Below the pieces are notes generated by a model. The model was not told the DNA's origin. It was given only the letters and a program-made list of their open reading frames with translations, and ran no database searches. From Eledone cirrhosa (lineage: Eukaryota), in NCBI GenBank assembly GCA_964016885.1, contig OZ024740.1:156116001-156180000 (forward strand): a stretch of 64,000 nucleotides of DNA, read 5' to 3'. Made by a program: the position numbers and the translations under genes. This document shows, piece after piece, positions 8,584 through 57,952 of the stretch (its first letter is position 1; each line of letters begins with the position of its first letter).

Positions 8584-8687
8584 TCAAATTACTTCTCTAA
8601 AAACCTGGCGTTTCAAGCCACTTTTTTCCATATAAAACAAGTAACATTGAAAGACCATCTCAACTCTACTTTTGAAGAGCAGAAGAA
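8584..8687 (-). CDS. putative terminal exon F (diverged C-type exon): VLLLFKSRVEMVFQCYLFYMEKSGLKRQVFREVI*
   Basis: Acceptor ttcctttaccagtttcgcag, phase 1; C-x8-GL spacing identical to C exons (CFAVNGNQMGL); TGA followed by ATTAAA (~8543) and AATAAA (~8430-8448). Confidence 0.6.
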
Positions 8688-14884: not shown

Positions 14885-15395
14885 AAAGAATAGAGGTGTA
14901 ACACACAAGTTATTATATAATGGTAAACGGAATAGAAAATGCTGACAAATTGTTCACAGTTGAAAAATGGTTTAATTAGGAATAAAAGAGTATTAGTGAT
15001 TGTATGGGTTAGTATTCAGTTGTGGTTTTAAGTTTTTAAGTTTTTACCGGTTGCGCATTTCTAAATGCTTTTCAAAAATAATTTTGAGATAGAGTGTCCG
15101 TGCTGTTTGCTCTGATCTGATTAGTTTTGGGAATTCTACCTGTTTTTATGTTAAAAAAGTGGCTCCAGCGTTATTTTTGTGTTGCAAAAATGCTTGTGGT
15201 CAAAACAATTTTGATTGGTCGGTAGAGGTCATGTGAATGTAAAAAGTTGATTTTGCGCCAAGACTGTTTTTATGTTAAAAAAGTGGCTCCAGCAAAAATT
15301 CTTGGTCAAAACAATTTTGATTGGTCGGTAGAGGTCATGTGGATAAAAAATTGGTTTTGCGCCAAGATTGAGAAATGACTCTTTCACAACAAATA

Positions 15396-15429
<34 letters not shown>

Positions 15430-15508
15430 TAGTAGTAGTAGTAGTAAGGTGTTCGATGCTGCGACAATGGCCAGCAGCGATGTGTGTCAAATGGCTATTA
15501 AGATACGC

Positions 15509-15604
<96 letters not shown>

Positions 15605-15719
15605 ACCAGTATTTTTTTCCCCCTGGTAAAATGGTGTACATTATTCGATTTTTTTCAGTAAGATCGGTTCTCTTAATAGAACATAAAAAATTTTAACAAT
15701 AAAAGGTGTGAAATGATAT

Positions 15720-15760
<41 letters not shown>

Positions 15761-16820: not shown

Positions 16821-16879
<59 letters not shown>

Positions 16880-16948: not shown

Positions 16949-16992
<44 letters not shown>

Positions 16993-17462: not shown

Positions 17463-17503
<41 letters not shown>

Positions 17504-20500
17504 GTTAAATGAACCTGATACAAACAAATTATCTCACCTGCATAATGTGCATTTTGAACACTGTACGATACATTTTTATAATGTGAAGGTACCACAGCTA
17601 TATACACATCAGCGTTTGGTACGTTAGCAACGCAGCTGTAATTCACCTCAGAATTGAAATATGCTATATTTTGGGAAATAATGGTGACTTGTGGAATGGA
17701 CGAGAAAGAAAAGTTTCTGCTCCGTTCGGCAATCGATACATTTTGGTAAAGCAATTTGCAAGTTATTTTCACTGCAGAATACAAACATGAAAATATTATA
17801 GATTAGAGAAACAACATTCGGTTGATGCATCATAAGTTTACGTAATTATAGATTAATAATTTCAAATATATGGAATATACCTATATGACCCCAGGAAATG
17901 ATATTAGTAAATTATGTTTAATCGAATTGTTTTAGAATAATATAAATGAGGACACTAATCAATTATCAACAATAATAAATATTTAAAGCTACTAACAACC
18001 CCACCAACTATAACCTAATGAGTACCAACAGAATTGTCACCCGTTTACTGGAACTTTATAACATTATTAAACACATTCCACCCTTCCTTTTACTCTAACC
18101 GAATATATTTCTCAATATTCTCAGTCATTGACTTTAAGAACAACTATAAATACAACGCAACTTCAGATAAAATCTAATTATCTCTGAAGATACATATGTT
18201 AACTTCTATTCGAAATAAATATACCTCTGGAAAATACGTAAAAATAAAATTAACCCCTCTATCTTCTTCGATTTCATGTTGTAATGTATCGCAAGTCGGT
18301 TGGGGTAAACCTCAAATAATTTCTTATCTATGTACCTCTCACTCTATCTACCTACCTATATATAATCGAGAAAAATGATATCTTACCTGGTGATGCCTGT
18401 GTTAAAGTAAGTTCTCCAATTGTTACGTTGGTTAGCTTCCTTATTTTTGGTATTCCGCCTTTTTCAATATCATTCAAATACCATTGGAAAGTGGTTTGTG
18501 GTGGTAATTTGTTCGTATTACAGCTAAATGTTATGTTCTTCATACTATTCATTGTTGTTAACACACCATATAATGAATCATTATAGTCTGTGTATGCGAG
18601 ATATCATAAAAATATTTTAATGTTAATCATAATTTTCAACATTGTAACGTAATAATTGTTTCTACTTTTAGCACGGGGCCAGCAATTATCCCAGTGCATT
18701 ACTGGTACTTTATTTTATCGACCCGGTAAGGATGAAAGGCAAAGTTAACCTCGACGGGATTTGAACTCAGATCATAAAGGGCCGTAACTCTATGCTGCAA
18801 AGCATGGCGTCCGACCCTGTACCATAACTGCCAATCCACAATGATGTATTAATTCTAATATTGTGCAAGTATTAAAAATTAATATTGTGACGAATCGCTT
18901 ACAGAAAATATTATTCGTAAAATCACCATAAATTTTACATTGTTTGTTGTTGTTGCTCTCGCCTTAGTCCGTTTTGAGTTAGTTTACTTATAATCAAATA
19001 TATTCTGTGTCCTTCCGTTTTTTTCCAGATGCAGTGTTTCCAGGACGGCATTCTCGAATATGTTCTATTTTTTAAATTACTTTAGTGAGGCAAGTTTGGT
19101 TGAATAGATTATATCACTCCATCATTACCTCTATTACTCTCCCATAGTTTATATTCTTGTATTGTTTTATTGATTTCAGTCATTACCCCGCGGCCATGCT
19201 GGGGTTTCCCAATCATACTGACCTTAGTAATCACTTTTTCAACTCTGTTACCTATTTTATTGATTTTTAATTTTTATTGAAATTCTCAGAGACGGCACAT
19301 AAACAGAGGCACAAACGTAAACATACACACATACGATGAGCTTCTACAGATTCCATTTGTTTAATTTCACCCATAAGGTATTGGTCATCCCGAGGCTATA
19401 TTACAAGACATTTGCCCAAGATGTCACGCCGTGGGAATGAACCTGAAATCACGTGGTTGCGAAGCAAACTGATTACCTCAATAGTTATTCATGTTTCATT
19501 GCAATTATTTGGATTAATTTCACTCATGGACTGCAGCCATGCAGGTTCAGCACCTTCAATAGTTCAAAGGCTTTATAGTCTACTGTAATGGAACCGTTAC
19601 TCTCGTTTGGTATTTATTTTATTGATGTCAGAGAAATAAGAATTGCAAAGTCATCCGAGTGTAGGCAGAAGCAATCGTGAGGGATACAAATGCGATATAT
19701 TTTTTGTGATTGATGCAGTCATTTTGTTTACTACCTGACGCTAATGAGCACATACAAATGCAGAAAGACAGACACTGTTTAATTTGCCTTGCTTGCTTTG
19801 AGGGTTTAAGTCGGAGGGGCGTCGTCGTGTCTTATGTCCTTGTCATTTAAATCCTGGTAGAGACCACTCCTTTTCATGAATAACCAAAGCCGATTTCTTC
19901 CAGAGAGAGAGAGAGAGATAGATAGATAGAGAGAGAGAGAGGGAAAGGTGGAAAGAAATCGACGCCCAATACTCAACTAGTACTTTTATTACCGACCCAA
20001 AATGATGGGAGGTAAACTTAACCTCTGCGGGATTTGATCCCAGAACACAGAGAACCCGAACAAACATTGCAATGTACTATATTCGATACTGTAACGATTC
20101 TTTCAATTCATGGTTTATACTCTGAATAACAACAGATGTTCATTCAGATAAATTTCAACAGATAATTGAAAGTAAGTAACTATCAATGGCAACAAAGACT
20201 ATGATTTGTTCACTTTAGTGCTTTTAACAGGTTTCAGTCTCTTGCAAGATACGAACCAGACCAACGGTTTGCTCCACGTCCATGTTATTCATGATGATAC
20301 TAACCTGGCGATATTGAAACTAGATATTAGCAACATCAATGTAATCACTACAAAAATGCCTGCAAAAATCGTAGACATGTCTCTTCTATCCTGATTAATT
20401 TATAAAAGAAAAAAAAAATGAATTCATGTAAAAGATACATACCTCCCAGGGAAACTATTTCTTTTATGAGTCCCATTTGGTTTCCATTTACGGCAAAGCA

Positions 20501-23500
20501 TGTAATGTTTGTGACTCCTGATGTTATAGTATTTCCTAATAAATATAGTTATAGATTGGTTTAACCATTTCAATTCTATTAGATTCGAATAGAGTCAAAT
20601 AAACTTACACTTCAAAAAATGAGAAGCAAATGTCATAAAGATATTAGTACAGATTAAAAGAAAAGGTTCTACTTTTTAGTCTTTTGCTTTTTTTAATATC
20701 CAACATCTTTATTTATTCAATATAAAAGAATCTCTTAATGTGATGAAAGGCCATTGACATTATATAAAAATAATAGAGCAGTATCTAATGAAAACAAAAT
20801 ATACTGTTAAATGGAACAGAAAATGAAAAGGAGAAAAAGAAAGAAAGATCAAGCAACCAAAGAAAGGGAGAGGAGCAGGGACTGTCACTACACACCAGTT
20901 TGAGCGGTGCCTCAGCTGTGCTCCGCAAGCGGCCCATCATCTTTCCGACTTTACGGAGGAAATCAGCAGTGCGGGGAACAAGGATGCCAGAGGTCTCGAT
21001 GGAAGCTGGTGCGAAGAAGAAGCGGTTGGTCAACCCCGGTATTTGACTAACCTCGTATCTTTCGTATTGCGGACTGCAGAGTCCAGGTTTGTGGTCGAAG
21101 CGAAGAGGCTGCAGGCGAAGAATTAGTCACAGCTTTTTCTCTCATTACGCAGAGTGGGCAGGTTGATGTAATTGGCTAACACACTTATCACGAAAATAAG
21201 AGATTTGGATTCGATTCCCGCGTATGCTGATTTTACCACTTTTTTATTCTAATCTGGGGTCTTATAAGCCCTGTTATTATCAGATAATTTTGTTTTTATT
21301 TATCTAATTTATTTTCACATCTCGTTTAACTGTTCACCCCCCCCCCTTTGTTTTACATGCGTTATTTCCATACCACACCACTCTCACGCATATACATATA
21401 TTTCTTATAATATACATATATTTCTCATACCACTGAGTCTTACCACCAATGCACGCACACACAACATATACGCTCTAGCGCACATTCAAGACGATTTCAT
21501 TGATTAATTAAAATTCATAAAACATCTAGAAAACCAACAGTCTGGCAGATTAACTTACCTTTATAAAATCCCCTTGCACTGAATGTAGTCACACCCAAAG
21601 TATTTTCCAGAGTTACGTGGACTGTAGCGTTTGATATATTTGCGACGCAGTCGTAATTTAACATAGGAATCACATTAGATACTGATGCATTTAGCTCAAC
21701 ATCTGGAAATTGTTGTAATTCAAAAGTTGTATGCAAACTATCCTGCATATTACCAGAATTTATGGTGCAGTTTACGGGTACTTAATCGAAAATAAAAGAA
21801 AAACAGATTAGAAACATCAGGAGAAAAAGAATGAAAACTTTTAATAGAGAACCGTGACAGAGCTTATCGGCTATCAAAAATATACATTCACTTTTGTATG
21901 TTTTTTTATCTATTACTAGTTTCAGACTATGTTATATTCATCACTTGATTATGGCAGATATCTTATCGAGCATGACAAAATATTTTGTGATATTTAATTT
22001 TCTGAGCGCATATTCTGCATTGTATTAACATAAAAGGTAAATATAACGGTTTGTGCTTTTGAATGATGGCTACTTAAACGTATATCGAGTAACCAGTGAA
22101 ACTATTTATATTTAATAAAAGATATACATAAAATCCTTTGTTATGGCTTAGTCGTTAGGGCACTTGATTAAAAATGCCTCAATATTTGTTCAGGCTTCTG
22201 TCAAGGTCAACTTTGCTTTTCATCCCTTCTAGTTCAATATATATAGTACCATCCATTACTGGAGTCGGTTGTTCTCTTTATTTCTCTGGAAGAAATTCGC
22301 TGTGTTCCGACCTGGTGAGGGATGGACTCTGCCAGATTTAAAATGTCCAAAACACGCCATAATTTTATTGCCGAGTCGTATTCATAAAATATAGAACTCA
22401 GATAGCCTCGATCCTCGGCGAATTTAATAAAATGTTTCGAAAAAAGCATCTAGACATTGCTTTTATATAAATTAACCAGATCTATATTCACATGTCACAT
22501 CATTCAATATATATACAAAGATATTATATAGAAAAAAACATACGTACTTCTATCTCCGGACGTAAATTGATATATATCTTTGACTATAATACTCTCCTGC
22601 GAGCGATTGCTTTGCAATATCTGATTGGTTACCATACCAGTAACGGGTTTTCCAGAAATAAACCACGAATAGTTCAGGTTAGCAATGTTATAATATGTGT
22701 AGCATGTAAAATTTGCACCGCCATTGCCTTCTAACTTCGCTGTTAGTCGTATCATTTGGGAAATAACTGGAAAAAATGGATAAAATACAAATATTCCACA
22801 TAAATAGATGTTTCGGCATCCCACATTTTAACTTTTGACTTTGAATTCACAACTTCCAATAAAAAAACATCAACAGGAACATTAAAAAGCAACACAAAAT
22901 ACAAACTAATCCAATTATTATGATATATTACAAATAATGATGTCTTGCACCATGGCATGTACATTTGTGTGTGTGTATATAGAAAAGAGTTTCATTTCTA
23001 CTCAGAAAATAAATTTTACACTCTATCTGAAGTTATTTACGGCTTTTAACATGCTGGCCTCAATTTCCCCCTCTCCAGAATCTATGTCATATTTAAGTTC
23101 ATTAATTGGTCTCGTGACTGCAACCCCCAAAAGGTTGGTCTTAGCCCATAGATGCATCTCATGTACATTAAAAGATGTGACCGGGTTTAGGAGATCAGCC
23201 AAGTATTCTCTCCCCGTCTCGAGGACGCACCTCACTTCAGAGAGAAGAACCCCAGACAAGTTGTTGACAGCAGGCCTGGAGATGGACTTTTTATTGCAAA
23301 GTTGGTGGATGGTCTGCGACCATACTTTATTTCCAGCTTAACCCCAATGTCCTTCAATGTCTTAACCTTGGACGCCTTTACTGTCTCTGCTACGACACAT
23401 CACGACTGCTTGTACCACGAGTACAAGAAGGAAGACTTATTTCTAATCCAAGCTTTGTAAGCTCCCTTCTTTGATCGGATAGCATTGTTAACTTCCTGAT

Positions 23501-25914: not shown

Positions 25915-25949
<35 letters not shown>

Positions 25950-31900: not shown

Positions 31901-31920
31901 TAACCAAAGCCGATTTCTTC

Positions 31921-31952
<32 letters not shown>

Positions 31953-37900: not shown

Positions 37901-37926
37901 CATGAATAACCAAAGCCGATTTCTTC

Positions 37927-37958
<32 letters not shown>

Positions 37959-43900: not shown

Positions 43901-46900
43901 CCTTTTCATGAATAACCAAAGCCGATTTCTTCCAGAGAGAGAGAGAGAGAGAGAGAGGGGGCGGAAAGGTGGAAAGAAATCGACGCCCAATACTCAACTA
44001 GTACTTTTATTACCGACCCAAAATGATGGGAGGTAAACTTAACCTCTGCGGGATTTGATCCCAGAACACAGAGAACCCGAACAAACATTGCAATGTACTA
44101 TATTCGATACTGTAACGATTCTTTCAATTCATGGTTTATACTCTGAATAACAACAGATGTTCATTCAGATAAATTTCAACAGATAATTGAAAGTAAGTAA
44201 CTATCCATGGCAACAAAGACTATGATTTGTTCACTTTAGTGCTTTTAACAGGTTTCAGTCTCTTGCAAGATACGAACCAGACCAACGGTTTGCTCCACGT
44301 CCATGTTATTCATGATGATACTAACCTGGCGATATTGAAACTAGATATTAGCAACATCAATGTAATCACTACAAAAATGCCTGCAAAAATCGTAGACATG
44401 TCTCTTCTATCCTGATTAATTTATAAAAGAAAACAAAAATGAATTCATGTAAAAGATACATACCTCCCACGGAAACTATTTTTTCTTTTATGAGTCCCAT
44501 TTGGTTTCCATTTACCGCAAAGCATGTAATCTTTGTGACTCCTGATGTGTTACTATTTCCTAATAAATATAGTTATAGATTGGTTTAACCATTTCAATTC
44601 TATTAGATTCGAATAGAGTCAAATAAACTTACACTTCATAAAATGAGAAGCAAATGTCATAAAGATATTAGTACAGATTAAAAGAAAAGGTTCTACTTTT
44701 TAGTCTTTTGCTTTTTTTAATATCCAACATCTTTATTTATTCAATATAAAAAAAATCTCTTCATGTGATAAAAGGCCATTGACATTATATAAAAATAATA
44801 GAGCAGTATCTAATGAAAACAAAATATACTATTAAATGGAACAGAAAATGAAAAGGAGAAAAAGAAAGAAAGATCAAGCAACCAAAGAAAGGGAGAGGAG
44901 CAGGGACTGTCACTACACACCAGTTTGAGCGGTGCCTCAGCTGTGCTCCGCAAGCGGCCCATCATCTTTCCGACTTTACGGAGGTAATCAGCAGTGCGGG
45001 GAACAAGGATGCCAGAGGTCTCGATGGAAGCTGGTGCGAAGAAGAAGCGGTTGGTCAACCCCGGTATTTTACTAACCTCCACTCTTTCGTATTGCGGACT
45101 GCAGAGTCCAGGTTTGTGGTCGAAGCGAAGAGGCTGCAGGCGAAGAATTAGTCACAGCTTTTTCTCTCATTACGCAGAGTGGGCAGGTTGATGTAATTGG
45201 CTAACACACTTATCACGAAAATAAGAGATTTGGATTCGATTCCCTCGTATGCTGATTTTACCACTTTTTTTATTCTAATCTGGGGTCTTATAAGCCCTGT
45301 TATTATCAGATAATTTTGTTTTTATTTATCTAATTTATTTTCACATCTCGTTTAACTGTTCACCCCCCCCCCCCTTTGTTTTACTTGCGTTATTTCCATA
45401 CCACACCACTCTCACGCATATACATATATTTCTTATAATATACATATATTTCTCATACGACTGAGTCTTACCACCAATGCACGCACACACAACATATACG
45501 CTCTAGCGCACATTCAAGACGATTTCATTGATTAATTAAAATTCATAAAACATCTAGAAAACCAACAGTCTGGCAGATTAACTTACCTTTATAAAATCCC
45601 CTTGCACTGAATGTAGTCACACCCAAAGTATTTTCCAGAGTTACGTGGACTGTAGCGTTTGATATATTTGCGACGCAGTCGTAATTTAACATAGGAATCA
45701 CATTAGATACTGATGCATTTAGCTTAACATCTGGAAATTGTTGTAATTCAAAAGTTGTATGCAAACTATCCTGCATAGCACCAGAATTTATGGTGCAGTT
45801 TACGGGTACTTAATCGAAAATAAAAGAAAAAAAGAATAGAAACATCAGGAGAAAAAGAATGAAAACTTTTAATAGAGAACCGTGACAGAGCTTATCGGCT
45901 ATCAAAAATATACATTCACTTTTGTATGTTTTTTATCTATTACTAGTTTCAGACTATGTTATATTCATCACTTGATTATGGCAGATATCTTATCGAGCAT
46001 GACAAAATATTTTGTGATATTTAATTTTCTGAGCGCATATTCTGCATTGTATTAACATAAAAGGTAAATATAACGGTTTATGCTTTTGAATGATGGCTAC
46101 TTAAACGTATATCGAGTAACCAGTGAAACTATTTATATTTAATAAAAGATATACATAAAATCCTTTGTTATGGCTTAGTCGTTAGGGCACTTGATTAAAA
46201 ATGCCTCAATATTTGTTCAGGCTTATGTCAAGGTCAACTTTGCTTTTCATCCCTTCTAGTTCAAAATATATAGTACCATCCATTACTGGAGTCGGTTGTT
46301 CTCTTTATTTCTCTGGAAGAAATTCGCTGTGTTCCGACCTGGTGAGGGATGGACTCTGCAAGATTTAAAATGTCCAAGACACGCCATAATCTTATTGCCG
46401 AGTCGTATTCATAAAATATAGAACTCAGATAGCCTCGATCCTCGGCGAATTTAATAAAATGTTTCGAAAAAAGAATCGAGACATTGCTTTTATATAAATT
46501 AACCAGATCTATATTCATATGTCACATCATTCAATATATATACAAAGATATTATATAGAAAACATACGTACTTCTATCTCCGGACGTAAATTGATATATA
46601 TCTTTGACTATAATACTCTCCTGCGAGCGATTGCTTTGCAATATCTGATTGGTTACCATACCAGTAACGGGTTTTCCAGAAATAAACCACAAATAGTTCA
46701 GGTTAACCATGTTAAAATATGTGTAGCATGTAAAATTTGCACCGCCATTGCCTTCTAACTTCGCTGTTAGTCGTATCATTTGGGAAATAACTGGAAAAAA
46801 TGGATAAAATACAAATATTCCACATAAATAGATGTTTCGGCATCCCACATTTTAACTTTGAATTCACAACTTCCAATAAAAAAACATCAACAGGAACATT

Positions 46901-49900
46901 AAAAAGCAACACAAAATACAAACTAATACAATTATTATGATATATTACAAATAATGATGTCTTGCACCATGGCATGTACATTTGTGTGTGTGTGTGTGTA
47001 TATAGAAAAGAGTTTCATTTCTACTCAGAAAATAAATTTTACACTCTATCTGAAGTTATTTACGGCTTTTAACATGCTGGCCTCAATTTCCCCCTCTCCA
47101 GAATCCATGTCATATTTAAGTTCATTAATTGGTCTCGTGACTGCAACCCCCAAAAGGTTGGTCTTAGCCCATAGATGCATCTCATGTACATTAAAAGATG
47201 TGACCGGGTTTAGGAGATCAGCAAAGTATTCTCTCCCCCTCTCGAGGACGCACCTCACTTCAGAGAGAAGAACCCCAGACAAGTTGTTGACAGCAGGCCT
47301 GGAGATGGACTTTTTATTGCAAAGTTGGTGGATGGTCTGCGACCATACTTTATTTCCAGCTTAACCCCAATGTCCTTCAATGTCTTAACCTTGGACGCCT
47401 TTACTGTCTCTGCTACGACACATCACGACTGCTTGTACCACGAGTACAAGAAGGAAGACTTATTTCTAATCCAAGCTTTGTAAGCTCCCTTCTTTGATCG
47501 GATAGCATTGTTAACTTCCTGATTGGACACGGCGGTGCTGCTGCTAACCACTGCCACATCGAGCCGCTTTCATCCGCTGTATTTAATAGCTGAAGCAGAA
47601 ATTGCCGAGCTGAACAGTCTCCACTCTGTTTCAACGTACTCAATTCTTTCAGGGTGTTCTCTGAATTTGGATGCAATAGTATCCACATATCCAATCATGA
47701 AATCTTCATCAGACAACGCTTTCCTCTTTATTCTGTATGGTGATATGAACTTGTCACAGTTTTAGGTTTTCTTAACTTTAGGTAATTTCGGATTACAGAT
47801 AACTATATGGTGATCAGTTGACAGCTCAGCTCTCTCCTAACACGAACATCCAGCACAGAATCGAAGAGCTCAGAGACAATAGAAAAATCACTTACTGATC
47901 ATTGTCCCCGATTTCTCGAAAACCATGAATATTTATAGATGTCTTTGTACTGCAAGAAGATGTTTATAATAGAGAGTTAATTACTAGAATGGAAACCTAA
48001 TAAGGCCTCTCCATTTGCATTTAGATCGGGATCGCCGTTCCTTCACATCAATATTTTCGCTGTCAGTTGCTTAGTGTCAGTATGTGCATTGACGTCGCTC
48101 ATTAGGATATATGACAGAGAACAAATACCGTTTACACAAGCCACTATAGTTCCATCTGAGAGCAAACTACCGATCCAAGAGATGACTGACGGATGAAGAT
48201 CGTAAGCGGTTAGTTTTGAGAGGCGATTCACATGTCAGACACGACCAAAAGCTTAGGTTATGTTGTGGGACAACAACATTGTTTTCAGCAAATTTCTCTA
48301 AGTAGGGAGTTCACTGACGTGACATAGAAGAGTAGGTCTTAGGTTGATCAGGTTTTACGGAAAACATGTTGGTAGTCGTTAAGGAAAGAGTGAAACGGGG
48401 GAGACGGAAGGAGAGAAAGAAAAAAATTCAGCTGATAGAGAAATTCATTGATAATTTTATAGTGTATTGTGGATGAATAAACAAACCTACTAGACATTTT
48501 GCCAACCTATAGTGTTTTTATGTTCCAAAGTACATCCGTAGATTCACACTTTGTTTATACTTTTTACATTTGTTGCATTCAACAGTGAACAAGGCACGGT
48601 AAGCTGACCAGTTTTTGAGATAAACAATTCTTGAAATACACCTTTACAGTCCCTTCCTAGTAATTTGGGTGAGTAGTGCTCTAATTACATAATTGTTTCT
48701 ACTGTTGGCACAAGGCCAGCAATTATCCCAGTGTATTACTGGTACTTTATTTATCGACCCCGTAAGGATGAAAGGCAAAGTTAACCTCGACGGGATTTGA
48801 ACTCAGATCATAAAGGGCCGTAACTCTATGCTGCAAAGCATGGCGTCCGACCCTGTACCATAACTGCCAATCCACAATGATGTATTAATTCTAATATTGT
48901 GCAAGTATTAAAAATTAATATTGTGACGAATCGCTTACAGAAAATATTATTCGTAAAATCACCATAAATTTTACATTGTTTGTTGTTGTTGCTCTCGCCT
49001 TAGTCCGTTTTGAGTTAGTTTACTTATAATCAAATATATTCTGTGTCCTTCCGTTTTTTTCCAGATGCAGTGTTTCCAGGACGGCATTCTCGAATATGTT
49101 CTATTTTTTAAATTACTTTAGTGAGGCAAGTTTGGTTGAATAGATTATATCACTCCATCATTACCTCTATTACTCTCCCATAGTTTATATTCTTGTATTG
49201 TTTTATTGATTTCAGTCATTACCCCGCGGCCATGCTGGGGTTTCCCAATCATACTGACCTTAGTAATCACTTTTTCAACTCTGTTACCTATTTTATTGAT
49301 TTTTTAATTTTTATTGAACTTCTCAGAGACGGCACATAAACAGAGGCACAAACGTAAACATACACACATACGATGAGCTTCTACAGATTCCTTTTGTTTA
49401 ATTTCACCCATAAGGTATTGGTCATCCCGAGGCTATATTACAAGACATTTGCCCAAGATGTCACGCCGTGGGAATGAACCTGAAATCACGTGGTTGCGAA
49501 GCAAACTCCTTACCTCAATAGTTATTCATGTTTCATTGCAATTATTTGGATTAATTTCTCTCATGGACTGCAGCCATGCAGGTTCAGCACCTTCAATAGT
49601 TCAAAGGCTTTATAGTCTACTGTAATGGAACCGTTACTCTCGTTTGGTATTTATTTTATTGATGTCAGAGAAATAAGAATTGCAAAGTCATCCGAGTGTA
49701 GGCAGAAGCAATCGTGAGGGATACAAATGCGATATATTTTTTGTGATTGATGCAGTCATTTTGTTTACTACCTGACGCTAATGAGCACATACAAATGCGG
49801 AAAGACAGACACTGTTTAATTTGCCTTGCTTGCTTTGAGAGTTTAAGTCGGAGGGGCGTCGTCGTGTCTTATGTCCTTGTCATTTAAAACCTGGTAGAGA

Positions 49901-52900
49901 CCACTCCTTTTCATGAATAACCAAAGCCGATTTCTTCCAGAGAGAGAGAGAGAGAGAGAGAGGGGGCGGAAAGGTGGAAAGAAATCGACGCCCAATACTC
50001 AACTAGTACTTTTATTACCGACCCAAAATGATGGGAGGTAAACTTAACCTCTGCGGGATTTGATCCCAGAACACAGAGAACCCGAACAAACATTGCAATG
50101 TACTATATTCGATACTGTAACGATTCTTTCAATTCATGGTTTATACTCTGAATAACAACAGATGTTCATTCAGATAAATTTCAACAGATAATTGAAAGTA
50201 AGTAACTATCCATGGCAACAAAGACTATGATTTGTTCACTTTAGTGCTTTTAACAGGTTTCAGTCTCTTGCAAGATACGAACCAGACCAACGGTTTGCTC
50301 CACGTCCATGTTATTCATGATGATACTAACCTGGCGATATTGAAACTAGATATTAGCAACATCAATGTAATCACTACAAAAATGCCTGCAAAAATCGTAG
50401 ACATGTCTCTTCTATCCTGATTAATTTATAAAAGAAAACAAAAATGAATTCATGTAAAAGATACATACCTCCCACGGAAACTATTTTTTCTTTTATGAGT
50501 CCCATTTGGTTTCCATTTACCGCAAAGCATGTAATCTTTGTGACTCCTGATGTGTTACTATTTCCTAATAAATATAGTTATAGATTGGTTTAACCATTTC
50601 AATTCTATTAGATTCGAATAGAGTCAAATAAACTTACACTTCATAAAATGAGAAGCAAATGTCATAAAGATATTAGTACAGATTAAAAGAAAAGGTTCTA
50701 CTTTTTAGTCTTTTGCTTTTTTTAATATCCAACATCTTTATTTATTCAATATAAAAAAAATCTCTTCATGTGATAAAAGGCCATTGACATTATATAAAAA
50801 TAATAGAGCAGTATCTAATGAAAACAAAATATACTATTAAATGGAACAGAAAATGAAAAGGAGAAAAAGAAAGAAAGATCAAGCAACCAAAGAAAGGGAG
50901 AGGAGCAGGGACTGTCACTACACACCAGTTTGAGCGGTGCCTCAGCTGTGCTCCGCAAGCGGCCCATCATCTTTCCGACTTTACGGAGGTAATCAGCAGT
51001 GCGGGGAACAAGGATGCCAGAGGTCTCGATGGAAGCTGGTGCGAAGAAGAAGCGGTTGGTCAACCCCGGTATTTTACTAACCTCCACTCTTTCGTATTGC
51101 GGACTGCAGAGTCCAGGTTTGTGGTCGAAGCGAAGAGGCTGCAGGCGAAGAATTAGTCACAGCTTTTTCTCTCATTACGCAGAGTGGGCAGGTTGATGTA
51201 ATTGGCTAACACACTTATCACGAAAATAAGAGATTTGGATTCGATTCCCTCGTATGCTGATTTTACCACTTTTTTTATTCTAATCTGGGGTCTTATAAGC
51301 CCTGTTATTATCAGATAATTTTGTTTTTATTTATCTAATTTATTTTCACATCTCGTTTAACTGTTCACCCCCCCCCCCTTTGTTTTACTTGCGTTATTTC
51401 CATACCACACCACTCTCACGCATATACATATATTTCTTATAATATACATATATTTCTCATACGACTGAGTCTTACCACCAATGCACGCACACACAACATA
51501 TACGCTCTAGCGCACATTCAAGACGATTTCATTGATTAATTAAAATTCATAAAACATCTAGAAAACCAACAGTCTGGCAGATTAACTTACCTTTATAAAA
51601 TCCCCTTGCACTGAATGTAGTCACACCCAAAGTATTTTCCAGAGTTACGTGGACTGTAGCGTTTGATATATTTGCGACGCAGTCGTAATTTAACATAGGA
51701 ATCACATTAGATACTGATGCATTTAGCTTAACATCTGGAAATTGTTGTAATTCAAAAGTTGTATGCAAACTATCCTGCATAGCACCAGAATTTATGGTGC
51801 AGTTTACGGGTACTTAATCGAAAATAAAAGAAAAAAAGAATAGAAACATCAGGAGAAAAAGAATGAAAACTTTTAATAGAGAACCGTGACAGAGCTTATC
51901 GGCTATCAAAAATATACATTCACTTTTGTATGTTTTTTATCTATTACTAGTTTCAGACTATGTTATATTCATCACTTGATTATGGCAGATATCTTATCGA
52001 GCATGACAAAATATTTTGTGATATTTAATTTTCTGAGCGCATATTCTGCATTGTATTAACATAAAAGGTAAATATAACGGTTTATGCTTTTGAATGATGG
52101 CTACTTAAACGTATATCGAGTAACCAGTGAAACTATTTATATTTAATAAAAGATATACATAAAATCCTTTGTTATGGCTTAGTCGTTAGGGCACTTGATT
52201 AAAAATGCCTCAATATTTGTTCAGGCTTATGTCAAGGTCAACTTTGCTTTTCATCCCTTCTAGTTCAAAATATATAGTACCATCCATTACTGGAGTCGGT
52301 TGTTCTCTTTATTTCTCTGGAAGAAATTCGCTGTGTTCCGACCTGGTGAGGGATGGACTCTGCAAGATTTAAAATGTCCAAGACACGCCATAATCTTATT
52401 GCCGAGTCGTATTCATAAAATATAGAACTCAGATAGCCTCGATCCTCGGCGAATTTAATAAAATGTTTCGAAAAAAGAATCGAGACATTGCTTTTATATA
52501 AATTAACCAGATCTATATTCATATGTCACATCATTCAATATATATACAAAGATATTATATAGAAAACATACGTACTTCTATCTCCGGACGTAAATTGATA
52601 TATATCTTTGACTATAATACTCTCCTGCGAGCGATTGCTTTGCAATATCTGATTGGTTACCATACCAGTAACGGGTTTTCCAGAAATAAACCACAAATAG
52701 TTCAGGTTAACCATGTTAAAATATGTGTAGCATGTAAAATTTGCACCGCCATTGCCTTCTAACTTCGCTGTTAGTCGTATCATTTGGGAAATAACTGGAA
52801 AAAATGGATAAAATACAAATATTCCACATAAATAGATGTTTCGGCATCCCACATTTTAACTTTGAATTCACAACTTCCAATAAAAAAACATCAACAGGAA

Positions 52901-55900
52901 CATTAAAAAGCAACACAAAATACAAACTAATACAATTATTATGATATATTACAAATAATGATGTCTTGCACCATGGCATGTACATTTGTGTGTGTGTGTG
53001 TGTATATAGAAAAGAGTTTCATTTCTACTCAGAAAATAAATTTTACACTCTATCTGAAGTTATTTACGGCTTTTAACATGCTGGCCTCAATTTCCCCCTC
53101 TCCAGAATCCATGTCATATTTAAGTTCATTAATTGGTCTCGTGACTGCAACCCCCAAAAGGTTGGTCTTAGCCCATAGATGCATCTCATGTACATTAAAA
53201 GATGTGACCGGGTTTAGGAGATCAGCAAAGTATTCTCTCCCCCTCTCGAGGACGCACCTCACTTCAGAGAGAAGAACCCCAGACAAGTTGTTGACAGCAG
53301 GCCTGGAGATGGACTTTTTATTGCAAAGTTGGTGGATGGTCTGCGACCATACTTTATTTCCAGCTTAACCCCAATGTCCTTCAATGTCTTAACCTTGGAC
53401 GCCTTTACTGTCTCTGCTACGACACATCACGACTGCTTGTACCACGAGTACAAGAAGGAAGACTTATTTCTAATCCAAGCTTTGTAAGCTCCCTTCTTTG
53501 ATCGGATAGCATTGTTAACTTCCTGATTGGACACGGCGGTGCTGCTGCTAACCACTGCCACATCGAGCCGCTTTCATCCGCAGTATTTAATAGCTGAAGC
53601 AGAAATTGCCGAGCTGAACAGTCTCCACTCTGTTTCAACGTACTCAATTCTTTCAGGGTGTTCTCTGAATTTGGATGCAATAGTATCCACATATCCAATC
53701 ATGAAATCTTCATCAGACAACGCTTTCCTCTTTATTCTGTATGGTGATATGAACTTGTCACAGTTTTAGGTTTTCTTAACTTTAGGTAATTTCGGATTAC
53801 AGATAACTATATGGTGATCAGTTGACAGCTCAGCTCTCTCCTAACACGAACATCCAGCACAGAATCGAAGAGCTCAGAGACAATAGAAAAATCACTTACT
53901 GATCATTGTCCCCGATTTCTCGAAAACCATGAATATTTATAGATGTCTTTGTACTGCAAGAAGATGTTTATAATAGAGAGTTAATTACTAGAATGGAAAC
54001 CTAATAAGGCCTCTCCATTTGCATTTAGATCGGGATCGCCGTTCCTTCACATCAATATTTTCGCTGTCAGTTGCTTAGTGTCAGTATGTGCATTGACGTC
54101 GCTCATTAGGATATATGACAGAGAACAAATACCGTTTACACAAGCCACTATAGTTCCTTCTGAGAGCAAACTACCGACCCAAGAGATGACTGACGGATGA
54201 AGATCGTAAGCGGTTAGTTTTGAGAGGCGATTCACATGTCAGACACGACCAAAAGCTTAGGTTATGTTGTGGGACAACAACATTGTTTTCAGCAAATTTC
54301 TCTAAGTAGGGAGTTCACTGACGTGACATAGAAGAGTAGGTCTTAGGTTGATCAGGTTTTACGGAAAACATGTTGGTAGTCGTTAAGGATAGAGTGAAAC
54401 GGGGGAGACGGAAGGAGAGAAAGAAAAAAATTCAGCTGATAGAGAAATTCATTGATAATTTTATAGTGTATTGTGGATGAATAAACAAACCTACTAGACT
54501 TTTTGCCAACCTATAGTGTTTTTATGTTCCAAAGTACATCCGTAGATTCACACTTTGTTTATACTTTTTACATTTGTTGCATTCAACAGTGAACAAGGCA
54601 CGGTAAGCTGACCAGTTTTTGAGATAAACAATTCTTGAAATACACCTTTACAGTCGCTTCCTAGTAATTTGGGTGAGTAGTGCTCTAATTAAATAATTGT
54701 TTATACTTTTGGCACAAGGCCAGCAATTACCCAGTACATTACTGGTACTTTATTTTATCGACCCCGTATGGATGAAAGGCAAAGTTAACCTCGGCGGGAT
54801 TTGAACTCAGATCATAAAGGGACGTAACTATGCTGGAAAGCATGTCCGAGCCTCTACCCATACTGCCAATTCACCGCCCTCATAATTAAATAATTGTTTC
54901 TACGTTAGGCACAAGGCCAGCAATCACCCAGTGCATTACTGGTACTTTATTAATTAAATAATGATATTCAGACACAGGTAGTGTTGCCCATTTCTTTTAA
55001 CTGTCTAGACAAAAAAAAAAGACAAACGTTCAGGTATCTCCCCCACTGCCGCCTGATGTGCAAGTTTGTGGTTGTACATTTCCAACTTTTCAAATCTGAA
55101 TATATCGCAACACATTTATCGCCATGGACTTTGTAAAACTAGCATAGATAATACAAGATATTTTGGTTTGACGGTTATTAGCATTGATACTGTGATGTTA
55201 AATTACTGATGGCAATAAGATACAATGTACTACGGTGTTTCAAAGTAACTGAACGTTGCAGCAATTATAGGGATAAGCACTTGGATAACACGAGTAGCAT
55301 TCTCTGTGTATTAGCTACCATAGTCGTGTGTCTAACCATTCTTCAAATATCAGTGACCCTCTAAAGTATCAGCTATCATGAACCAGTGACAAGAAAACAT
55401 CAATTTTGTTTTCATAATTTTTTAGTCAATTAAAGTACCCCACAAAACAGTATGGCTTTAAATTAGGAGTTTTCTATCTCCAATATGGATGTTACCACTT
55501 TGTTACCTCTGTGCCTTACGCTTATAATGCTTGACATCCGTTGATCTACTGTTTATTTTAATATTATAAACTGTGGTTTAATGTTGAACTAATTTACTCC
55601 TTTACTGTGAAATTGTGCCGCATAGTGCTTATAGCATTAATCACACGACAGTGAGACCATACAATGGTGAGTTCGATCCCACGTTGTGCTCTTGAGCAAA
55701 CTACCTCATTTTATTTTGCTCCAGTTCATTCAGCTGAAAAGAACTACTAGAAACTGTTAGGACAATCTTGCGACATATTAGCGTCCCAAACCAACGAAGA
55801 ATCCTTAACAAATGAAAACGACGGGGCACGCTCCAGTTTCCAAACAGCCAGTGTCGGCATGTAAAAATGAATGTAAAACTCGTGATGATGGTGGTGACGA

Positions 55901-57952
55901 TAATGATGATGACGATGGAAATGTTGATGATGGTGATGATGTTGGTGACGATGACGATGTTAACGACAATGATGATAAGGATTTACTTCTCAGCTTTGCT
56001 AAGTGTTTACGTTGCTGACATCTATATTGAACTGCCAACACTGAACAAGTCAAGGTGAAGAAGCATCTATATTGACACCCGATATGCTCGAAATGTAAGT
56101 TCACACCTTATTATTTCAAAACAGGAAATATAGAAAAGGGAATGAAAATTTAGTGACATTAAAAAAATAAATAAATAGCCACAGGTAGAATATCTTTGAT
56201 CTCTGGATCTTTCCGATTGGAACTGCACCTCCTTATAGTTTCTACCTATAGCTGAAAATAACGTTTCATTCGGGATTTCTAAATTTTAGCCACTGTATCA
56301 TGCTGAGTCACCTCTATGAATGGTGCATTTTCCATTATAGCGACCCACAACAGTATATATTTTATTGACACATATTTTATTTTATCGACTTTGGAAGTCA
56401 CCCAGAGCAGAATTTAAACGTATAGGGACGTAACTAAATACTGCAACAATAAATATTTCCAATAATCTACTCTGATTGTCAATTCGCTGCTTTAACTGGT
56501 TTTTATTAGGAGTACTTTAAAGGGATGAGAATGAGAAATAATTCCACTCTCAATGACAAAGTCGCAATTAATACGACGCAAAGTTTGATATCACGTAAAA
56601 TACGATAAATGAAAAATGAGTTGAATAGTTTTTATGTGTTTTATGAATAGCTAAAATATGATTGCTTCATTTTCATTATACAATCTAAAATCAAGTCATT
56701 CGTCAAAGAATTACAACTTCAAAATTACAAAGGTGACAAAATCGCCGCGGTATGCTGTTATACGTTGGCCAAAGAAGATAATGACGGTGCAACAACTTCA
56801 CTTTATGAGAGGATGGGACATGTTCAGCTAGTAACTTTTCATTTGTCTGTCTATCTCTGTTCTTTTCTTTTTCTCTCTTCCCTCTCTCGCATTGTGTAGT
56901 CATTAAAAACTTGAGAGAGTTTCTATACTGTCGATCAAAATGATTGAAAGAGTATCCAAGTCCCCGTCAAATAACACATTCTCCAGGCTTAAAAGTAAAA
57001 AAGAACCCATTAGATGTACCACTCTTGGAAAAAACCCACTTTTAGAACATCTTTGATTTTGATCTTGGAATGAATACGTTTGCTCCACTAAATTGAATGT
57101 GTGTTGAATATTAACGATGACAACTTACTTGTAGTATTCAACTGGAAATTCCAGCGGGAAATACTTTCATCTACTCCTGAATATTCAGCGCTGAATTGGA
57201 TTACACGATTAACATTAAACTTTTTGATAATATACATTTTTCCATTGGTCACACTAACATGTGCTGTAATATATATATATATAGAGAGAAAAAAAATATA
57301 ACAGTAAATTTTGGAATAGAGATGGGTATATGCAAATACATTCATAGACACGATTCAAAGAGGTAGATTTCTATATGGTTACTATAAGCAAGAGATAGAA
57401 GCCAGATTCCCCTAAATCTACATCCAACTGTTTTAAACAAAGAAAAACAACGTACTTATGTATTCACACACCATATAGAAAGATCGTGACCGGAACGATT
57501 TTGATCGTATGTCTACTGGATCAGAGATGACCTAAGGTTAAGCAACAACAACAAACATATAAACATTCACACATACACGCACACACACACCTTAAATAAA
57601 TAAAACTGCCTGAGCATATATATAGGCTGATATGGTGTTCAATAATAACAATATTAACATATTTCATGGTTTGTGTGTTTTACACTAGCAATTTTATCTT
57701 TATGAGTGCATCTGAATTTATTGAAAATACCTTGGAAATTTATTTATTGAAAATAAAGGAAAAATAGCGTTGTAAAAACTTACAGTCATTGGTTTTGTAA
57801 ATTAGCGCTCTATTGCTTATATTCTTGCAGTCAATGTAGATGATCGGTGTCGTATTGAGCGTTATATTTGTAAATTTGCTGGGAACAACGGCGCATTGAG
57901 TTTTGGGATAGAAATTGAAATCAACTCTTTTGATCACATTATTAGCGGGAAA
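8584..57952 (-). CDS. spliced multi-immunoglobulin-like-domain extracellular glycoprotein gene (5' incomplete; about 24 exons and ~1,385 aa in the window)
   Basis: Chain of exons with canonical AG/GT sites that joins in frame through phase-1 introns; repeated Ig-like Cys(B)/Trp(C)/Cys(F) patterns (NFTC..YSWF..VNC; TFSC..FQWY..ITC); dense N-x-S/T sequons. Confidence 0.8.
8855..9740 (+). mobile_element. 5'-truncated Penelope-like element (GIY-YIG endonuclease + 3' pLTR) with a short inverted 5' terminus
   Basis: ORF 8841-9278 has Cys linker, NVVYSIIC, YIGET, EH; ~8855-8900 is the reverse complement of ~9694-9740; ends in (TA)n. Confidence 0.85.
9584..9625 (+). ncRNA. hammerhead-like motif, probably degenerate
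   Basis: CTGAGGAG-GTCACA-GAATG-TGTGAC-GAAA-GAGCTTT in the Penelope 3' region; stems I and III are weak. Confidence 0.4.
10300..12730 (-). mobile_element. Penelope-like element 3' part (RT C-terminus remnant, GIY-YIG, long 3' region)
   Basis: ORF 11803-12372: CNCKKRAECPLNGECL, NIVYRC, YIGATSTTFKERWYNH, CRLCLAE, CRH. Confidence 0.85.
10365..10445 (-). ncRNA. degenerate extended-stem-II hammerhead motif
   Basis: Minus strand: CTGCCGA-TTATTGA...TCAGTGGC-GAAAC-GCGC-GTC; the 3' half is canonical and the 5' core is mutated. Confidence 0.5.
12780..14818 (-). mobile_element. Penelope-like element 3' part (RT C-terminus + GIY-YIG), interrupted by a SINE
   Basis: ORF 14456-14818 YINRHSNHP...RISRLS; ORF 13504-13950 CNCRQPNNCLLNGKC, NIIYQC, YVGATS; degenerate hammerhead-like motif at ~12822-12903. 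Confidence 0.85.
13995..14175 (+). mobile_element. tRNA-derived SINE inserted in the Penelope element
   Basis: Same sequence family as 50-230. Confidence 0.85.
14921..17465 (+). mobile_element. Penelope-like element: GIY-YIG ORF flanked by an inverted pair of ~800 bp pseudo-LTRs
   Basis: Coding ~15793-16423 (CDRPNCGIC, NLIYVLTC, YIGQT, R..H, E..FI); 14921-~15730 is the reverse complement of ~16620-17465; the 3' end abuts (TA)n. Confidence 0.9.
17538..17771 (-). CDS. exon E (diverged B-type, 234 nt): VKITCKLLYQNVS...IPQVTIISQ...VNYSCVANVPNADVYIAVVPSHYKNVSYSVQNAHYA
   Basis: Acceptor ttctgcag, donor gtgaga, phase 1-1; aligns with exon B (NYDCVANISNATVHV). Confidence 0.85.
18387..18587 (-). CDS. 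exon D (diverged A-type, 201 nt): DYNDSLYG...NITFSCNTNKLPPQTTFQWYLND...LTLTQASP
   Basis: Acceptor acacag, donor gtaaga, phase 1-1; Ig B-strand Cys and C-strand Trp. Confidence 0.85.
18651..18839 (-). mobile_element. SINE at the left array boundary
   Basis: Reverse complement of the SINE at 50-230; its left flank is unique sequence. Confidence 0.85.
19180..19470 (-). mobile_element. second tRNA-derived SINE family, degenerate (repeated in every unit)
   Basis: Minus strand TTTCAGGTTCATTCCCACGGCGTGACATCTTGGGCAAATGTCTT...TAGCCTCGGG resembles a common octopus SINE head and body (from recall). Confidence 0.6.
20443..20535 (-). CDS. exon C, unit 1: GNTITSGVTNITCFAVNGNQMGLIKEIVSLG
   Basis: Acceptor tttattag, donor gtatgt, 93 nt, phase 1-1. 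Confidence 0.82.
20860..21130 (-). mobile_element. fragment of a restriction-like-endonuclease (CRE-type) non-LTR retrotransposon (repeated in every unit)
   Basis: GC-rich island; KY..L(frameshift)TNRFFFAPASIETSG...ADFLRKVG matches the RLE-domain K-Y...F-x-P-x-x-x-E-T-x-G pattern. Confidence 0.6.
21559..21780 (-). CDS. exon B, unit 1: IPVNCTINSGNMQDSLHTTFELQQFPDVELNASVSNVIPMLNYDCVANISNATVHVTLENTLGVTTFSARGFYK
   Basis: Acceptor ttcttttattttcgattaag, donor gtaagt, 222 nt, phase 1-1. Confidence 0.85.
22548..22766 (-). CDS. exon A, unit 1: VISQMIRLTAKLEGNGGANFTCYTYYNIANLNYSWFISGKPV...FTSGDR
   Basis: Acceptor ttttttccag, donor gtacgt, 219 nt, phase 1-1; Ig Cys and Trp. Confidence 0.85.
23040..23730 (-). 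mobile_element. decayed RTE-like LINE fragment (repeated in every unit)
   Basis: Peptides GVLLSE..VLERGREYFADLLNP and LFSSAISASAIKYCG*KRL resemble the RTE endonuclease-RT linker. Confidence 0.55.
24050..24365 (-). mobile_element. decayed CR1/Jockey-type RT fragment (repeated in every unit)
   Basis: KAFGRV*H..LSKLTAYDLHPSVISWIGSLLSDGT resembles KAFDRVWH..LLSKL...WI.SFLS.R. Confidence 0.6.
24665..24852 (-). mobile_element. junction SINE between units 1 and 2 (equivalent copies at ~30674-30861, 36677-36864, 42683-42870, 48688-48875)
   Basis: Left flank matches the right-boundary SINE flank and right flank matches the left-boundary SINE flank. Confidence 0.85.
26451..26543 (-). CDS. exon C, unit 2: GNSNTSGVTKITCFAVNGDQMGLIKEIVSPG
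   Basis: Same splice sites as unit 1, 93 nt, open frame. Confidence 0.82.
27568..27789 (-). CDS. exon B, unit 2
   Basis: 222 nt, intact splice sites, same peptide as unit 1. Confidence 0.85.
28557..28775 (-). CDS. exon A, unit 2 (LTAELEG variant)
   Basis: 219 nt, intact splice sites. Confidence 0.85.
32456..32551 (-). CDS. exon C, unit 3: GNSNTSGVTKITCFAVNGNQMGLIKEKIVSVG
   Basis: 96 nt; in-frame 3-nt indel relative to units 1-2. Confidence 0.82.
33576..33797 (-). CDS. exon B, unit 3 (SGAMQ / DVKL variant)
   Basis: 222 nt, intact splice sites. Confidence 0.85.
34561..34779 (-). CDS. exon A, unit 3 (YFNMVNLNYLW variant)
   Basis: 219 nt, intact splice sites. Confidence 0.85.
38462..38557 (-). 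CDS. exon C, unit 4
   Basis: 96 nt, as unit 3. Confidence 0.82.
39582..39803 (-). CDS. exon B, unit 4
   Basis: 222 nt, as unit 3. Confidence 0.85.
40567..40785 (-). CDS. exon A, unit 4
   Basis: 219 nt, as unit 3. Confidence 0.85.
44464..44559 (-). CDS. exon C, unit 5
   Basis: 96 nt, as unit 3. Confidence 0.82.
45587..45808 (-). CDS. exon B, unit 5
   Basis: 222 nt, as unit 3. Confidence 0.85.
46572..46790 (-). CDS. exon A, unit 5
   Basis: 219 nt, as unit 3. Confidence 0.85.
50469..50564 (-). CDS. exon C, unit 6
   Basis: 96 nt, as unit 3. Confidence 0.82.
51591..51812 (-). CDS. exon B, unit 6
   Basis: 222 nt, as unit 3. Confidence 0.85.
52576..52794 (-). CDS. exon A, unit 6
   Basis: 219 nt, as unit 3. 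Confidence 0.85.
54692..54950 (-). mobile_element. SINE at the right array boundary plus an adjacent partial SINE
   Basis: Same family with its own diagnostic variants (CCTCGGCGG, GGACGTAACTATGC); a second 3' fragment at ~54889-54950; unique sequence follows. Confidence 0.85.
55618..55745 (+). mobile_element. degenerate tRNA-derived SINE
   Basis: B-box GAGTTCGATCCC followed by GTTGTGCTCTTGAGCAAAC...TTGCTCCAGTTCATTCAGCTG. Confidence 0.5.
55884..55976. repeat. degenerate (GAT)n trinucleotide repeat
   Basis: Directly visible. Confidence 0.85.
56011..56106 (-). CDS. candidate exon (96 nt): SVNLHFEHIGCQYRCFFTLTCSVLAVQYRCQQ
   Basis: Pyrimidine tract then taag acceptor; weak donor gtaaac; phase 1-1; same length as C exons. 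Confidence 0.4.
57129..57263 (-). CDS. upstream exon (135 nt): SHVSVTNGKMYIIKKFNVNRVIQFSAEYSGVDESISRWNFQLNTT
   Basis: Acceptor ttacag, donor gtaagt, phase 1-1, open frame. Confidence 0.7.
57784..57952 (-). CDS. upstream exon (169 nt): FPANNVIKRVDFNFYPKTQCAVVPSKFTNITLNTTPIIYIDCKNISNRALIYKTND
   Basis: Acceptor cttactag (phase 0), donor gtaagt (phase 1); AVVPSKFTNITL resembles exon E AVVPSHYKNVSY. Confidence 0.72.

Follow-up and report, generated by a model that had tools for sequence, protein, structure and literature searches.

The window examined here is a 64,000-nucleotide stretch of the 3.0-Gb genome of Eledone cirrhosa (OZ024740.1:156116001-156180000), whose closest proteins are octopod, and it contains a tandem array of six units, each carrying a three-exon cassette for a pair of immunoglobulin (Ig)-type domains. 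The array probably represents six spliced, in-frame two-Ig cassettes that form part of the extracellular arm of an octopod adhesion G-protein-coupled receptor (GPCR) with a single gene copy. That it belongs to the GPCR gene lying downstream is very probable, and the receptor most likely comprises N-terminal domains, 16-18 Ig-type domains, an HRM domain, a GAIN domain with its GPS, and seven transmembrane (7TM) helices. Positions are those of the window, with negative numbers lying beyond its left edge.

The Cassette Array

Self-comparison of the window delimits six tandem units of ~6,005 bp each on the minus strand, every one of which carries an exon A of 219 nt, an exon B of 222 nt, and an exon C of 96 nt (units 1-4) or 93 nt (units 5-6). 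A preliminary description of this stretch had proposed such a minus-strand cassette, with canonical splice sites and a frame kept across units, and this is what is found: all 18 array exons have AG/GT ends, are in phase 1 at both ends, and are free of stops. Together with the unique exons U1 and U2 on one side and D1 and D2 on the other, they form an in-window model of 22 exons and 1,318 codons with no stop, the translation of which contains 56 N-glycosylation sequons (7-8 per module). The exons are as follows.

57784..57952, minus strand: U1, phase 0 to 1, AG/GT ends, in frame; 35% identical to Octopus vulgaris CAI9721197.1 residues 83-133
57129..57263, minus strand: U2, phase 1 to 1; 32% identical to CAI9721197.1 residues 132-175
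18652..54874, minus strand: tandem array of six ~6,005-bp units with exons A, B, and C; pairwise divergence 0.02-1.3%
52576..52794, minus strand: A1, strands A-E of Ig domain 1, with the first Cys and the C-strand Trp
51591..51812, minus strand: B1, F-G strands of domain 1 and first half of domain 2
50469..50564, minus strand: C1, second half of domain 2
46572..46790, minus strand: A2, splice ends and phase
45587..45808, minus strand: B2, splice ends and phase
44464..44559, minus strand: C2, splice ends and phase
40567..40785, minus strand: A3, splice ends and phase
39582..39803, minus strand: B3, splice ends and phase
38462..38557, minus strand: C3, splice ends and phase
34561..34779, minus strand: A4, splice ends and phase
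33576..33797, minus strand: B4, splice ends and phase
32456..32551, minus strand: C4, splice ends and phase
28557..28775, minus strand: A5, splice ends and phase
27568..27789, minus strand: B5, splice ends and phase
26451..26543, minus strand: C5, splice ends and phase
22548..22766, minus strand: A6, covered exactly by a contig of sequencing run X4; A-B joint
21559..21780, minus strand: B6, A-B and B-C joints in X4
20443..20535, minus strand: C6, B-C joint in X4
18387..18587, minus strand: D1, unique A-type exon of module 7; Ig_3 match under cut-off; D1-D2 joint in X4
17538..17771, minus strand: D2, unique B-type exon of module 7; 59-62% identical to Octopus ortholog modules; X4 contig extends past it

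Stop-free copies alone are weak evidence for a gene, since only 16 exonic sites vary among the units. A control profile was built only from 20 non-array modules, seven of whose training exons were among the 11,969 six-frame fragments searched; all 18 array exons ranked directly behind these seven (E 3e-8 to 0.17, against 1.6 for the next match), and with the same profile the spliced array module reached 74 bits, whereas the highest-scoring of 500 shuffled sequences reached 8.5. Pfam searches of nine exons returned a single Ig match, D1 (Ig_3, E 4e-4, under the cut-off), and none for the array exons on their own.

The preliminary description had put the protein at about 1,385 residues, a length that is reproduced only if two further candidate exons, 55984-56106 and 8584-8695, are added (first stop at codon 1386). 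Neither was retained. The former has no counterpart in O. vulgaris, where the U2 equivalent (residues 132-175) is followed directly by the A equivalent (178-224), and the latter, put forward as the last exon, is a dispersed repeat with five other copies in 414 kb and the wrong first base (T instead of G). The region 8560-8720 is a short dispersed repeat, present on both strands, that mimics a terminal exon.

Splicing of the Cassette

Four public sequencing runs, X1-X4, were compared over 17505-24600; their contigs give no level, strand, or tissue. Contigs of X4 contain the A-B joint (22548 to 21780, depth 465), the B-C joint (21559 to 20535, depth 538), and the D1-D2 joint (18387 to 17771, depth 160), with intron ends at all three that read GT..AG on the minus strand, while contigs of X1-X3 cover the introns and contain none of the three joints. 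X4, the library type of which is not on record, is inferred to be RNA from its spliced contigs. Both the unit 1-4 and the unit 5-6 variants occur in it (depth 356/587 at position 21750). The cassette is real and expressed. Two of the four junctions that had been named for checking are thus seen in X4, namely A-B and B-C; that from 20443 to 18587 is absent among the 15 of 491 joints listed, and the C-A junction (26451 to 22766) lies outside the stretch examined. Another X4 contig (21752-22577, depth 31) spans the whole A-B intron, which suggests intron retention or pre-mRNA.

The X4 contig that joins D1 to D2 has 28 unplaced letters ahead of D1 and continues for 303 nt beyond D2, where the next base is a G with a base other than T after it. 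Such a start would suit a C-type exon, since these all begin with GA, and it excludes both the next Ig exon found downstream (B8, described below) and the exon ending at 8695, since both begin with T. Direct splicing of D2 to B8 is thus excluded for this contig. Splicing of D2 to C8 with B8 skipped is compatible with the contig, as it would give 309 nt to the end of exon A9, against the 303 nt seen.

The Two-Domain Module

The cassette codes for a predicted pair of Ig-type domains, within an extracellular region that would be heavily N-glycosylated. Its fold was predicted with AlphaFold2 from the O. vulgaris ortholog of the D1-D2 module, in an alignment that also included 13 translated exons of the locus and one Argonauta module. 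The model (pLDDT 84, pTM 0.74) has two all-beta domains, as the preliminary description had anticipated, and the best Foldseek matches are tandem Ig superfamily pairs (such as KIR, CD22, NCAM, and PTPRK; E 5e-7 to 1e-5), with TM-scores of only 0.3-0.4 because the hinge differs.

On this model, domain 1 is an Ig superfamily domain. Residues 1-96 resemble antibody CH2, IgNAR, and titin Ig domains (Z 9-10; root-mean-square deviation [rmsd] 2.5-2.9 over 82-90 residues), paralogous A exons match Ig_3, and the ortholog passes the Ig_3 cut-off. The Cys-Trp-Cys pattern previously noted in the array modules falls at Cys 22, Trp 35, and Cys 78, corresponding to the B/F-strand Cys pair and C-strand Trp. 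Domain 2, which contains two Cys but lacks a Trp, is predicted to form seven strands. Taken alone, it is closest to sandwiches of fibronectin type III (FnIII) type (3b83, Z 10.3, rmsd 2.5, 85 residues aligned; 4lsd and 3teu, Z 9), and language-model neighbors of the whole module, which serve as leads only, fall in C2-set/Ig clusters (0.86-0.88); C2-set-like and FnIII-like topologies cannot be separated for this domain on the model.

Probable Continuation of the Gene into an Adhesion GPCR

The gene had been thought to end at 8584. Instead, it very probably extends on the same strand for ~220 kb past the left edge of the window into further Ig exons followed by HRM, GAIN, GPS, and 7TM exons, the HRM to 7TM exons lying 66-204 kb beyond that edge. 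In all, 47 exons, each with AG/GT ends and in phase with its neighbors, make up 2,268 codons without a stop over 285 kb. Those outside the window are as follows.

80848..80963, minus strand: U0, upstream exon, joins U1 in frame; with U1 and U2 forms an N-terminal region of non-Ig-module type
-53425 (OZ024740.1:156062348-156062575), minus strand: B8, 33% identical to its positional match in O. sinensis
-55670, minus strand: C8, further Ig-module exon
-58482, minus strand: A9, further Ig-module exon
-59941, minus strand: B9, further Ig-module exon
-63872, minus strand: C9, further Ig-module exon
-65778 (OZ024740.1:156050222) and -66511, minus strand: two HRM exons, Pfam E 6.6e-5 and 1.1e-3, under cut-off
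Between the HRM and GPS exons, minus strand: seven GAIN exons, one Pfam match (E 0.005, under cut-off)
-137411 (Pfam match at OZ024740.1:155978484), minus strand: GPS exon, E 1e-8, over cut-off
To -202657, minus strand: nine transmembrane (TM)-region exons in frame; 7tm_2 over cut-off at OZ024740.1:155955693 and 155914981

Searched exon by exon with Pfam, four of seven exons match HRM, GAIN, or Ig families under the cut-offs. The GPS sequence HL-TNFAILM is an intact cleavage site, and it fits the consensus of H-L/I-S/T followed by a tethered agonist TxFxxLM, as given in PMC13197933. One GAIN exon has a single match in the whole genome assembly, so the gene is taken to be single-copy. B8 is less conserved (33%) than its neighbors C8 and A9 (67%) relative to O. 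sinensis, as would fit a skipped or alternative exon.

At its 5' end, the U0-U2 region looks cadherin-like by eye, and U1 gave no usable match in an atlas search. A candidate exon further upstream, 116152-116307 (OZ024740.1:156232152-156232307), is rich in beta-strand residues and sequons and resembles U1 in kind, and was rejected as its phase does not fit the next known exon.

Octopod Orthologs

An HMMER search of 1.84 billion representative proteins with D2 returned three matches: O. sinensis XP_029635561.1 (LOC115210917), with eight modules; Argonauta hians GAB1606681.1, a partial model in which three Ig modules are joined to HRM-GAIN-GPS-7TM; and a fish multi-Ig protein (E 4e-5), which was set aside as no more than a remote Ig-type resemblance. 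Exon A and a GAIN exon, used as queries in word-indexed protein searches, gave no match. With the Argonauta protein as query, O. vulgaris CAI9721197.1 was found (2,146 aa, annotated as 'adhesion G-protein coupled receptor D1-like'), which covers the locus collinearly, U1 through TM7, within one gene model. Identity to it is 34% over U0-U2, 57% over HRM, 58% over GAIN, and 69% over 7TM, and identity to the Argonauta ortholog over HRM-GAIN-GPS-7TM is 47-68%. The 7TM regions of the orthologs score 117-148 bits in Pfam, and that of the locus is 68-69% identical to them. The order of the modules is collinear with the orthologs. Because the O. sinensis and O. vulgaris proteins are 96% alike, they count as one lineage.

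A tree built from 29 modules places the six array modules together with the only copy of the first module in O. vulgaris (bootstrap 100), while O. sinensis modules 2-4, which are 88-96% identical, group with module 7 of E. cirrhosa (bootstrap 91). The module matching the array is thus present once in Octopus, and it is the first module that was amplified six times in E. cirrhosa. From these sequences, two octopod lineages appear to have amplified different cassettes of the same gene, each arriving at a total of nine or ten modules.

The preliminary description had recognized no named family. The array most likely lies in the N-terminal region of an adhesion GPCR with orthologs in O. vulgaris, O. 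sinensis, and Argonauta; proteins of the same architecture are therefore present in automatic annotation, though not as a published description. Literature searches found no account of the gene, its architecture, or the ortholog accessions in the collection searched, which largely excludes subscription journals.

Comparison with Known Receptors

The locus encodes a secretin-like 7TM region, a GAIN domain next to TM1, and the GPS triad with a tethered agonist, and its GAIN region is 58% and 47% identical to orthologs that pass the Pfam cut-off. The combination of 7TM, GAIN, and GPS identifies an adhesion GPCR (class B2). That the long N-terminal region lies on the same transcript as the 7TM region is supported by the in-frame model and the orthologous models but not by a spanning transcript, none having been seen, and two expected exons are missing across a gap.

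Among solved structures, the best matches are the vertebrate receptors ADGRL3, ADGRD1, and ADGRF1 (E 1e-60, 2e-44, and 4e-43, respectively, with the Argonauta ortholog as query), which share the HRM-GAIN-GPS-7TM core. ADGRD1 (GPR133) has an N-terminal pentraxin domain. Lectin, olfactomedin, pentraxin, and SEA domains are all absent from the Pfam matches to CAI9721197.1 and GAB1606681.1 at E up to 1, the pentraxin result applying to models with an incomplete 5' end. ADGRL3 also outscores ADGRD1, and by its domains the receptor fits neither ADGRD1 nor ADGRL; the 'D1-like' label reflects a best hit and does not establish orthology. Latrophilins (ADGRL) are described in PMC6900090 as carrying rhamnose-binding lectin (and olfactomedin) domains; these precede the HRM, whereas here Ig modules lead directly into it. 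Many invertebrate adhesion GPCRs fit no vertebrate subfamily, according to the same source.

Ig domains ahead of HRM or GAIN with a class B2 7TM region are also found in ADGRA2/3 (LRR-Ig-HRM-GAIN) and ADGRF5 (SEA-Ig-Ig-GAIN), which have one or two Ig domains each. The E. cirrhosa receptor differs in its 16-18 Ig domains in strictly alternating pairs and in having no leucine-rich repeat (LRR) or SEA match. Sponge adhesion GPCRs with Ig and HRM domains have been reported (PMC4302439), and domain shuffling is described as general in the family (PMC12716839). The octopus-expanded 'group 3' of Ritschard et al. (2019) consists of multi-copy adhesion GPCRs with GPS and 7TM and with LRR or Death domains (PMC6408891); a term search of the three supplementary files of that paper found neither 'immunoglobulin' nor 'Ig-like'. 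In contrast to group 3, the present gene is single-copy and has grown internally, not by gene duplication; its one GAIN-exon match and the lack of Ig terms in those files make membership in that group less likely. Elsewhere in the assembly, class B 7TM genes that lack introns and have open frames as long as 900 aa lie in clusters (contig C2, 119.8-122.6 Mb; contig C4, 312.3-312.5 Mb), which probably represent an octopod-expanded GPCR group. The O. vulgaris, O. sinensis, and Argonauta orthologs share the three-exon two-Ig module and the order of modules, with a different module amplified in Octopus and a partial model in Argonauta.

How the Array Arose

The units diverge by only 0.02-1.3%, and units 2-4 differ by 1-5 substitutions in 6 kb, so the array is recent. 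Both of its ends lie in a dispersed repeat of ~190 bp with 1,135 candidate places in the genome (of which 40 were scored), which we take to be a short interspersed element (SINE) from its size, abundance, and promoter-box motifs.

54692..54874, strand not assigned: SINE-like repeat at the 5' boundary, ancestral left copy (self-comparison, alignment)
18652..18839, strand not assigned: SINE-like repeat at the 3' boundary, ancestral right copy (alignment)
~24666, 30675, 36678, 42684, and 48689, strand not assigned: five internal right/left chimeric repeats (alignment)

In the internal repeats, the 5' part matches the right copy and its flank and the 3' end matches the left copy and its flank. Such chimeras, together with direct repeats at both ends, are the footprint of unequal crossing-over, and on this comparison SINE-mediated unequal exchange quite likely made the array. 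The first duplication would have come from unequal crossing-over between two SINE-like repeats, in the same orientation, on either side of a single A-B-C cassette, and further unequal exchange would have led to six units, the frame being kept during amplification owing to the symmetric phase-1 exons. Growth of domain repeats by several domains at once, including Ig pairs, is described in PMC1553488.

Possible Functions of the Extended Arm

By analogy with the receptor family, the arm may serve adhesion or mechanical signaling tuned by its length, a proposal to which we give a little less than an even chance. As in other members of the family, the precursor would cleave itself between the Leu and Thr of the His-Leu-Thr site, with the halves staying associated. 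Its glycosylated Ig arm would anchor the receptor on a neighboring cell or matrix, and tension on the arm would uncover the tethered agonist, which would lead to a G-protein signal. Five added modules (ten Ig domains) might then alter the reach and force threshold of the receptor. Lengthening of the Drosophila dCIRL ectodomain with a triple CD4 Ig spacer is described as flattening the mechanical response (PMC5548486), from which ten added Ig domains should matter.

Alternatively, the amplification may be recent and close to neutral, a side effect of repeat-driven recombination in the same gene that the receptor tolerates; this is possible though distinctly less probable. Low unit divergence, breakpoints in an abundant repeat, and the common route of two-domain duplication, including that of Ig repeats (PMC1553488), all agree with such growth. 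Against it stand the second lineage, which amplified a different module to a similar total of nine to ten, and the exonic changes, which mostly alter amino acids (12 of 13 variable codons). Two cases of amplification cannot, for their part, prove selection on length.

Somewhat less likely again is that the arm of this gene is an immune or self/non-self recognition surface, the copies of which are diversifying under selection. Among the six units, 16 of 534 exonic sites vary, compared with 52 of 5,196 intronic sites (Fisher P 4e-4; SINE and microsatellite columns left out), and the residue-changing codons point the same way. In the ortholog model, four of the six changed domain-1 residues would lie at the B-C loop and F-G turn, which is a lead only; B-C and F-G loops usually bind ligands in Ig domains. 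When changes within 15 nt are merged, however, 7 exonic and 42 intronic clusters remain and the excess is not significant (P 0.22), and the per-site nonsynonymous and synonymous values (pN 0.028 vs. pS 0.013) rest on 1.5 synonymous changes. In addition, four of the six array copies are 99-100% identical in protein, and the gene occurs once in the genome, which is not typical of immune receptor families. The recognition and neutral alternatives both concern function and therefore do not conflict with the gene structure proposed here.

A broader and rather doubtful extension of length-tuned signaling would see an undescribed octopod adhesion GPCR with an arm that acts as a ruler of paired Ig domains, rebuilt independently in two lineages to about nine or ten modules. 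Selection on length would then fix the distance between cells or the sensitivity to force, while copy number would go on changing through unequal exchange and the binding loops of the new copies would diversify.

Alternatives to the Gene Structure

Several observations weigh against the assignment of the array to the receptor. Over 17505-24600, the runs gave no transcript that connects the array with HRM or 7TM, and the 71 kb between D2 and the next Ig exon are mostly AT satellite with a 200-N gap. The C-type exon expected after D2 and the A-type exon expected before B8 were not found by profile over 414 kb, pattern scan, or searches of the whole genome, one of which had a stricter initial filter, in an assembly whose gaps mean that absence proves nothing. 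Neither a 5' end with a signal peptide (in the 250 kb upstream) nor the last exon of the gene was found. The module that was folded is a stand-in, only 19-23% identical to the array exons. All orthologs are automatic gene models, of which the O. vulgaris one skips several A exons, and O. sinensis XP_029635561.1 ends a few residues after the HRM region begins and lacks the 7TM, either through an assembly error or as a natural Ig-only form.

These points leave some room for a different assignment of the array, to a secreted or membrane-bound multi-Ig glycoprotein that stands apart from the downstream GPCR gene. The long gapped interval, the two missing exons, and the Ig-only O. sinensis RefSeq model would agree with this; an Ig-only isoform could also coexist with the receptor. 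We consider a separate gene unlikely, as the O. vulgaris model spans U1 to TM7, the Argonauta protein joins homologous modules to 7TM, the module order is collinear, and the proposed last exon is a repeat excluded by the next base of the X4 contig. The two expected exons may be unassembled, in which case the receptor would have at least 18 Ig domains, or else D2 is spliced to C8 and there would be 16; on both options the array stays on the receptor.

It is also improbable that the six copies are partly an assembly artifact, over-expanded or of mixed haplotypes: units 2-4 are nearly identical and X1-X3 may be the assembly's own source and so not independent, but the units carry nested diagnostic differences, both unit types occur in X4, the array contigs are several-fold deeper than the unique flank in X1-X3 and 2.4-3.7 times the D1-D2 depth in X4 (depth not being copy number), and the chimeric SINE junction is what real unequal exchange leaves.

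Neighboring Repeats

Other repeats surround the gene. A ~45-kb AT-rich array (OZ024740.1 ~156064400-156109600), in which the 200-N gap takes up -19067 to -18868, lies inside the intron after D2, and a 2.5-kb AT satellite occupies 389-2872. The intron that separates the TM5 exons holds a second 200-N gap, at which the set of exons is complete. Just downstream of D2, an inverted repeat of ~900 bp (14914-15793 and 16556-17472, 92% identical) is possibly a non-autonomous DNA transposon or a hairpin able to affect splicing. Upstream of U1, 58287-63941 holds remnants resembling long interspersed elements (LINEs), with reverse transcriptase (E 2e-10) and endonuclease frames in two copies that are ~70-76% alike, and a further LINE-like remnant at 4698-5264 has a reverse transcriptase frame of its own (4701-5261). 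At 6800-8130, 11800-12550, and 13500-14040, broken frames gave no Pfam match at E 0.01; their Cys-rich motifs resemble those of Penelope-type elements.

Implications

The annotation of such genes is prone to error, with one ortholog model lacking the receptor half and another skipping exons, so that they are missed or split. For the receptor family, the locus suggests that arm length may be tuned by evolution, the number of modules having changed recently, and separately in two octopod lineages, by recombination that can be traced. The experiment of altering ectodomain length, as engineered in the fly and described in PMC5548486, has seemingly been run in nature, and the octopods may offer a natural series, from three modules in the partial Argonauta model to nine or ten, in which length-tuned signaling could be tested.

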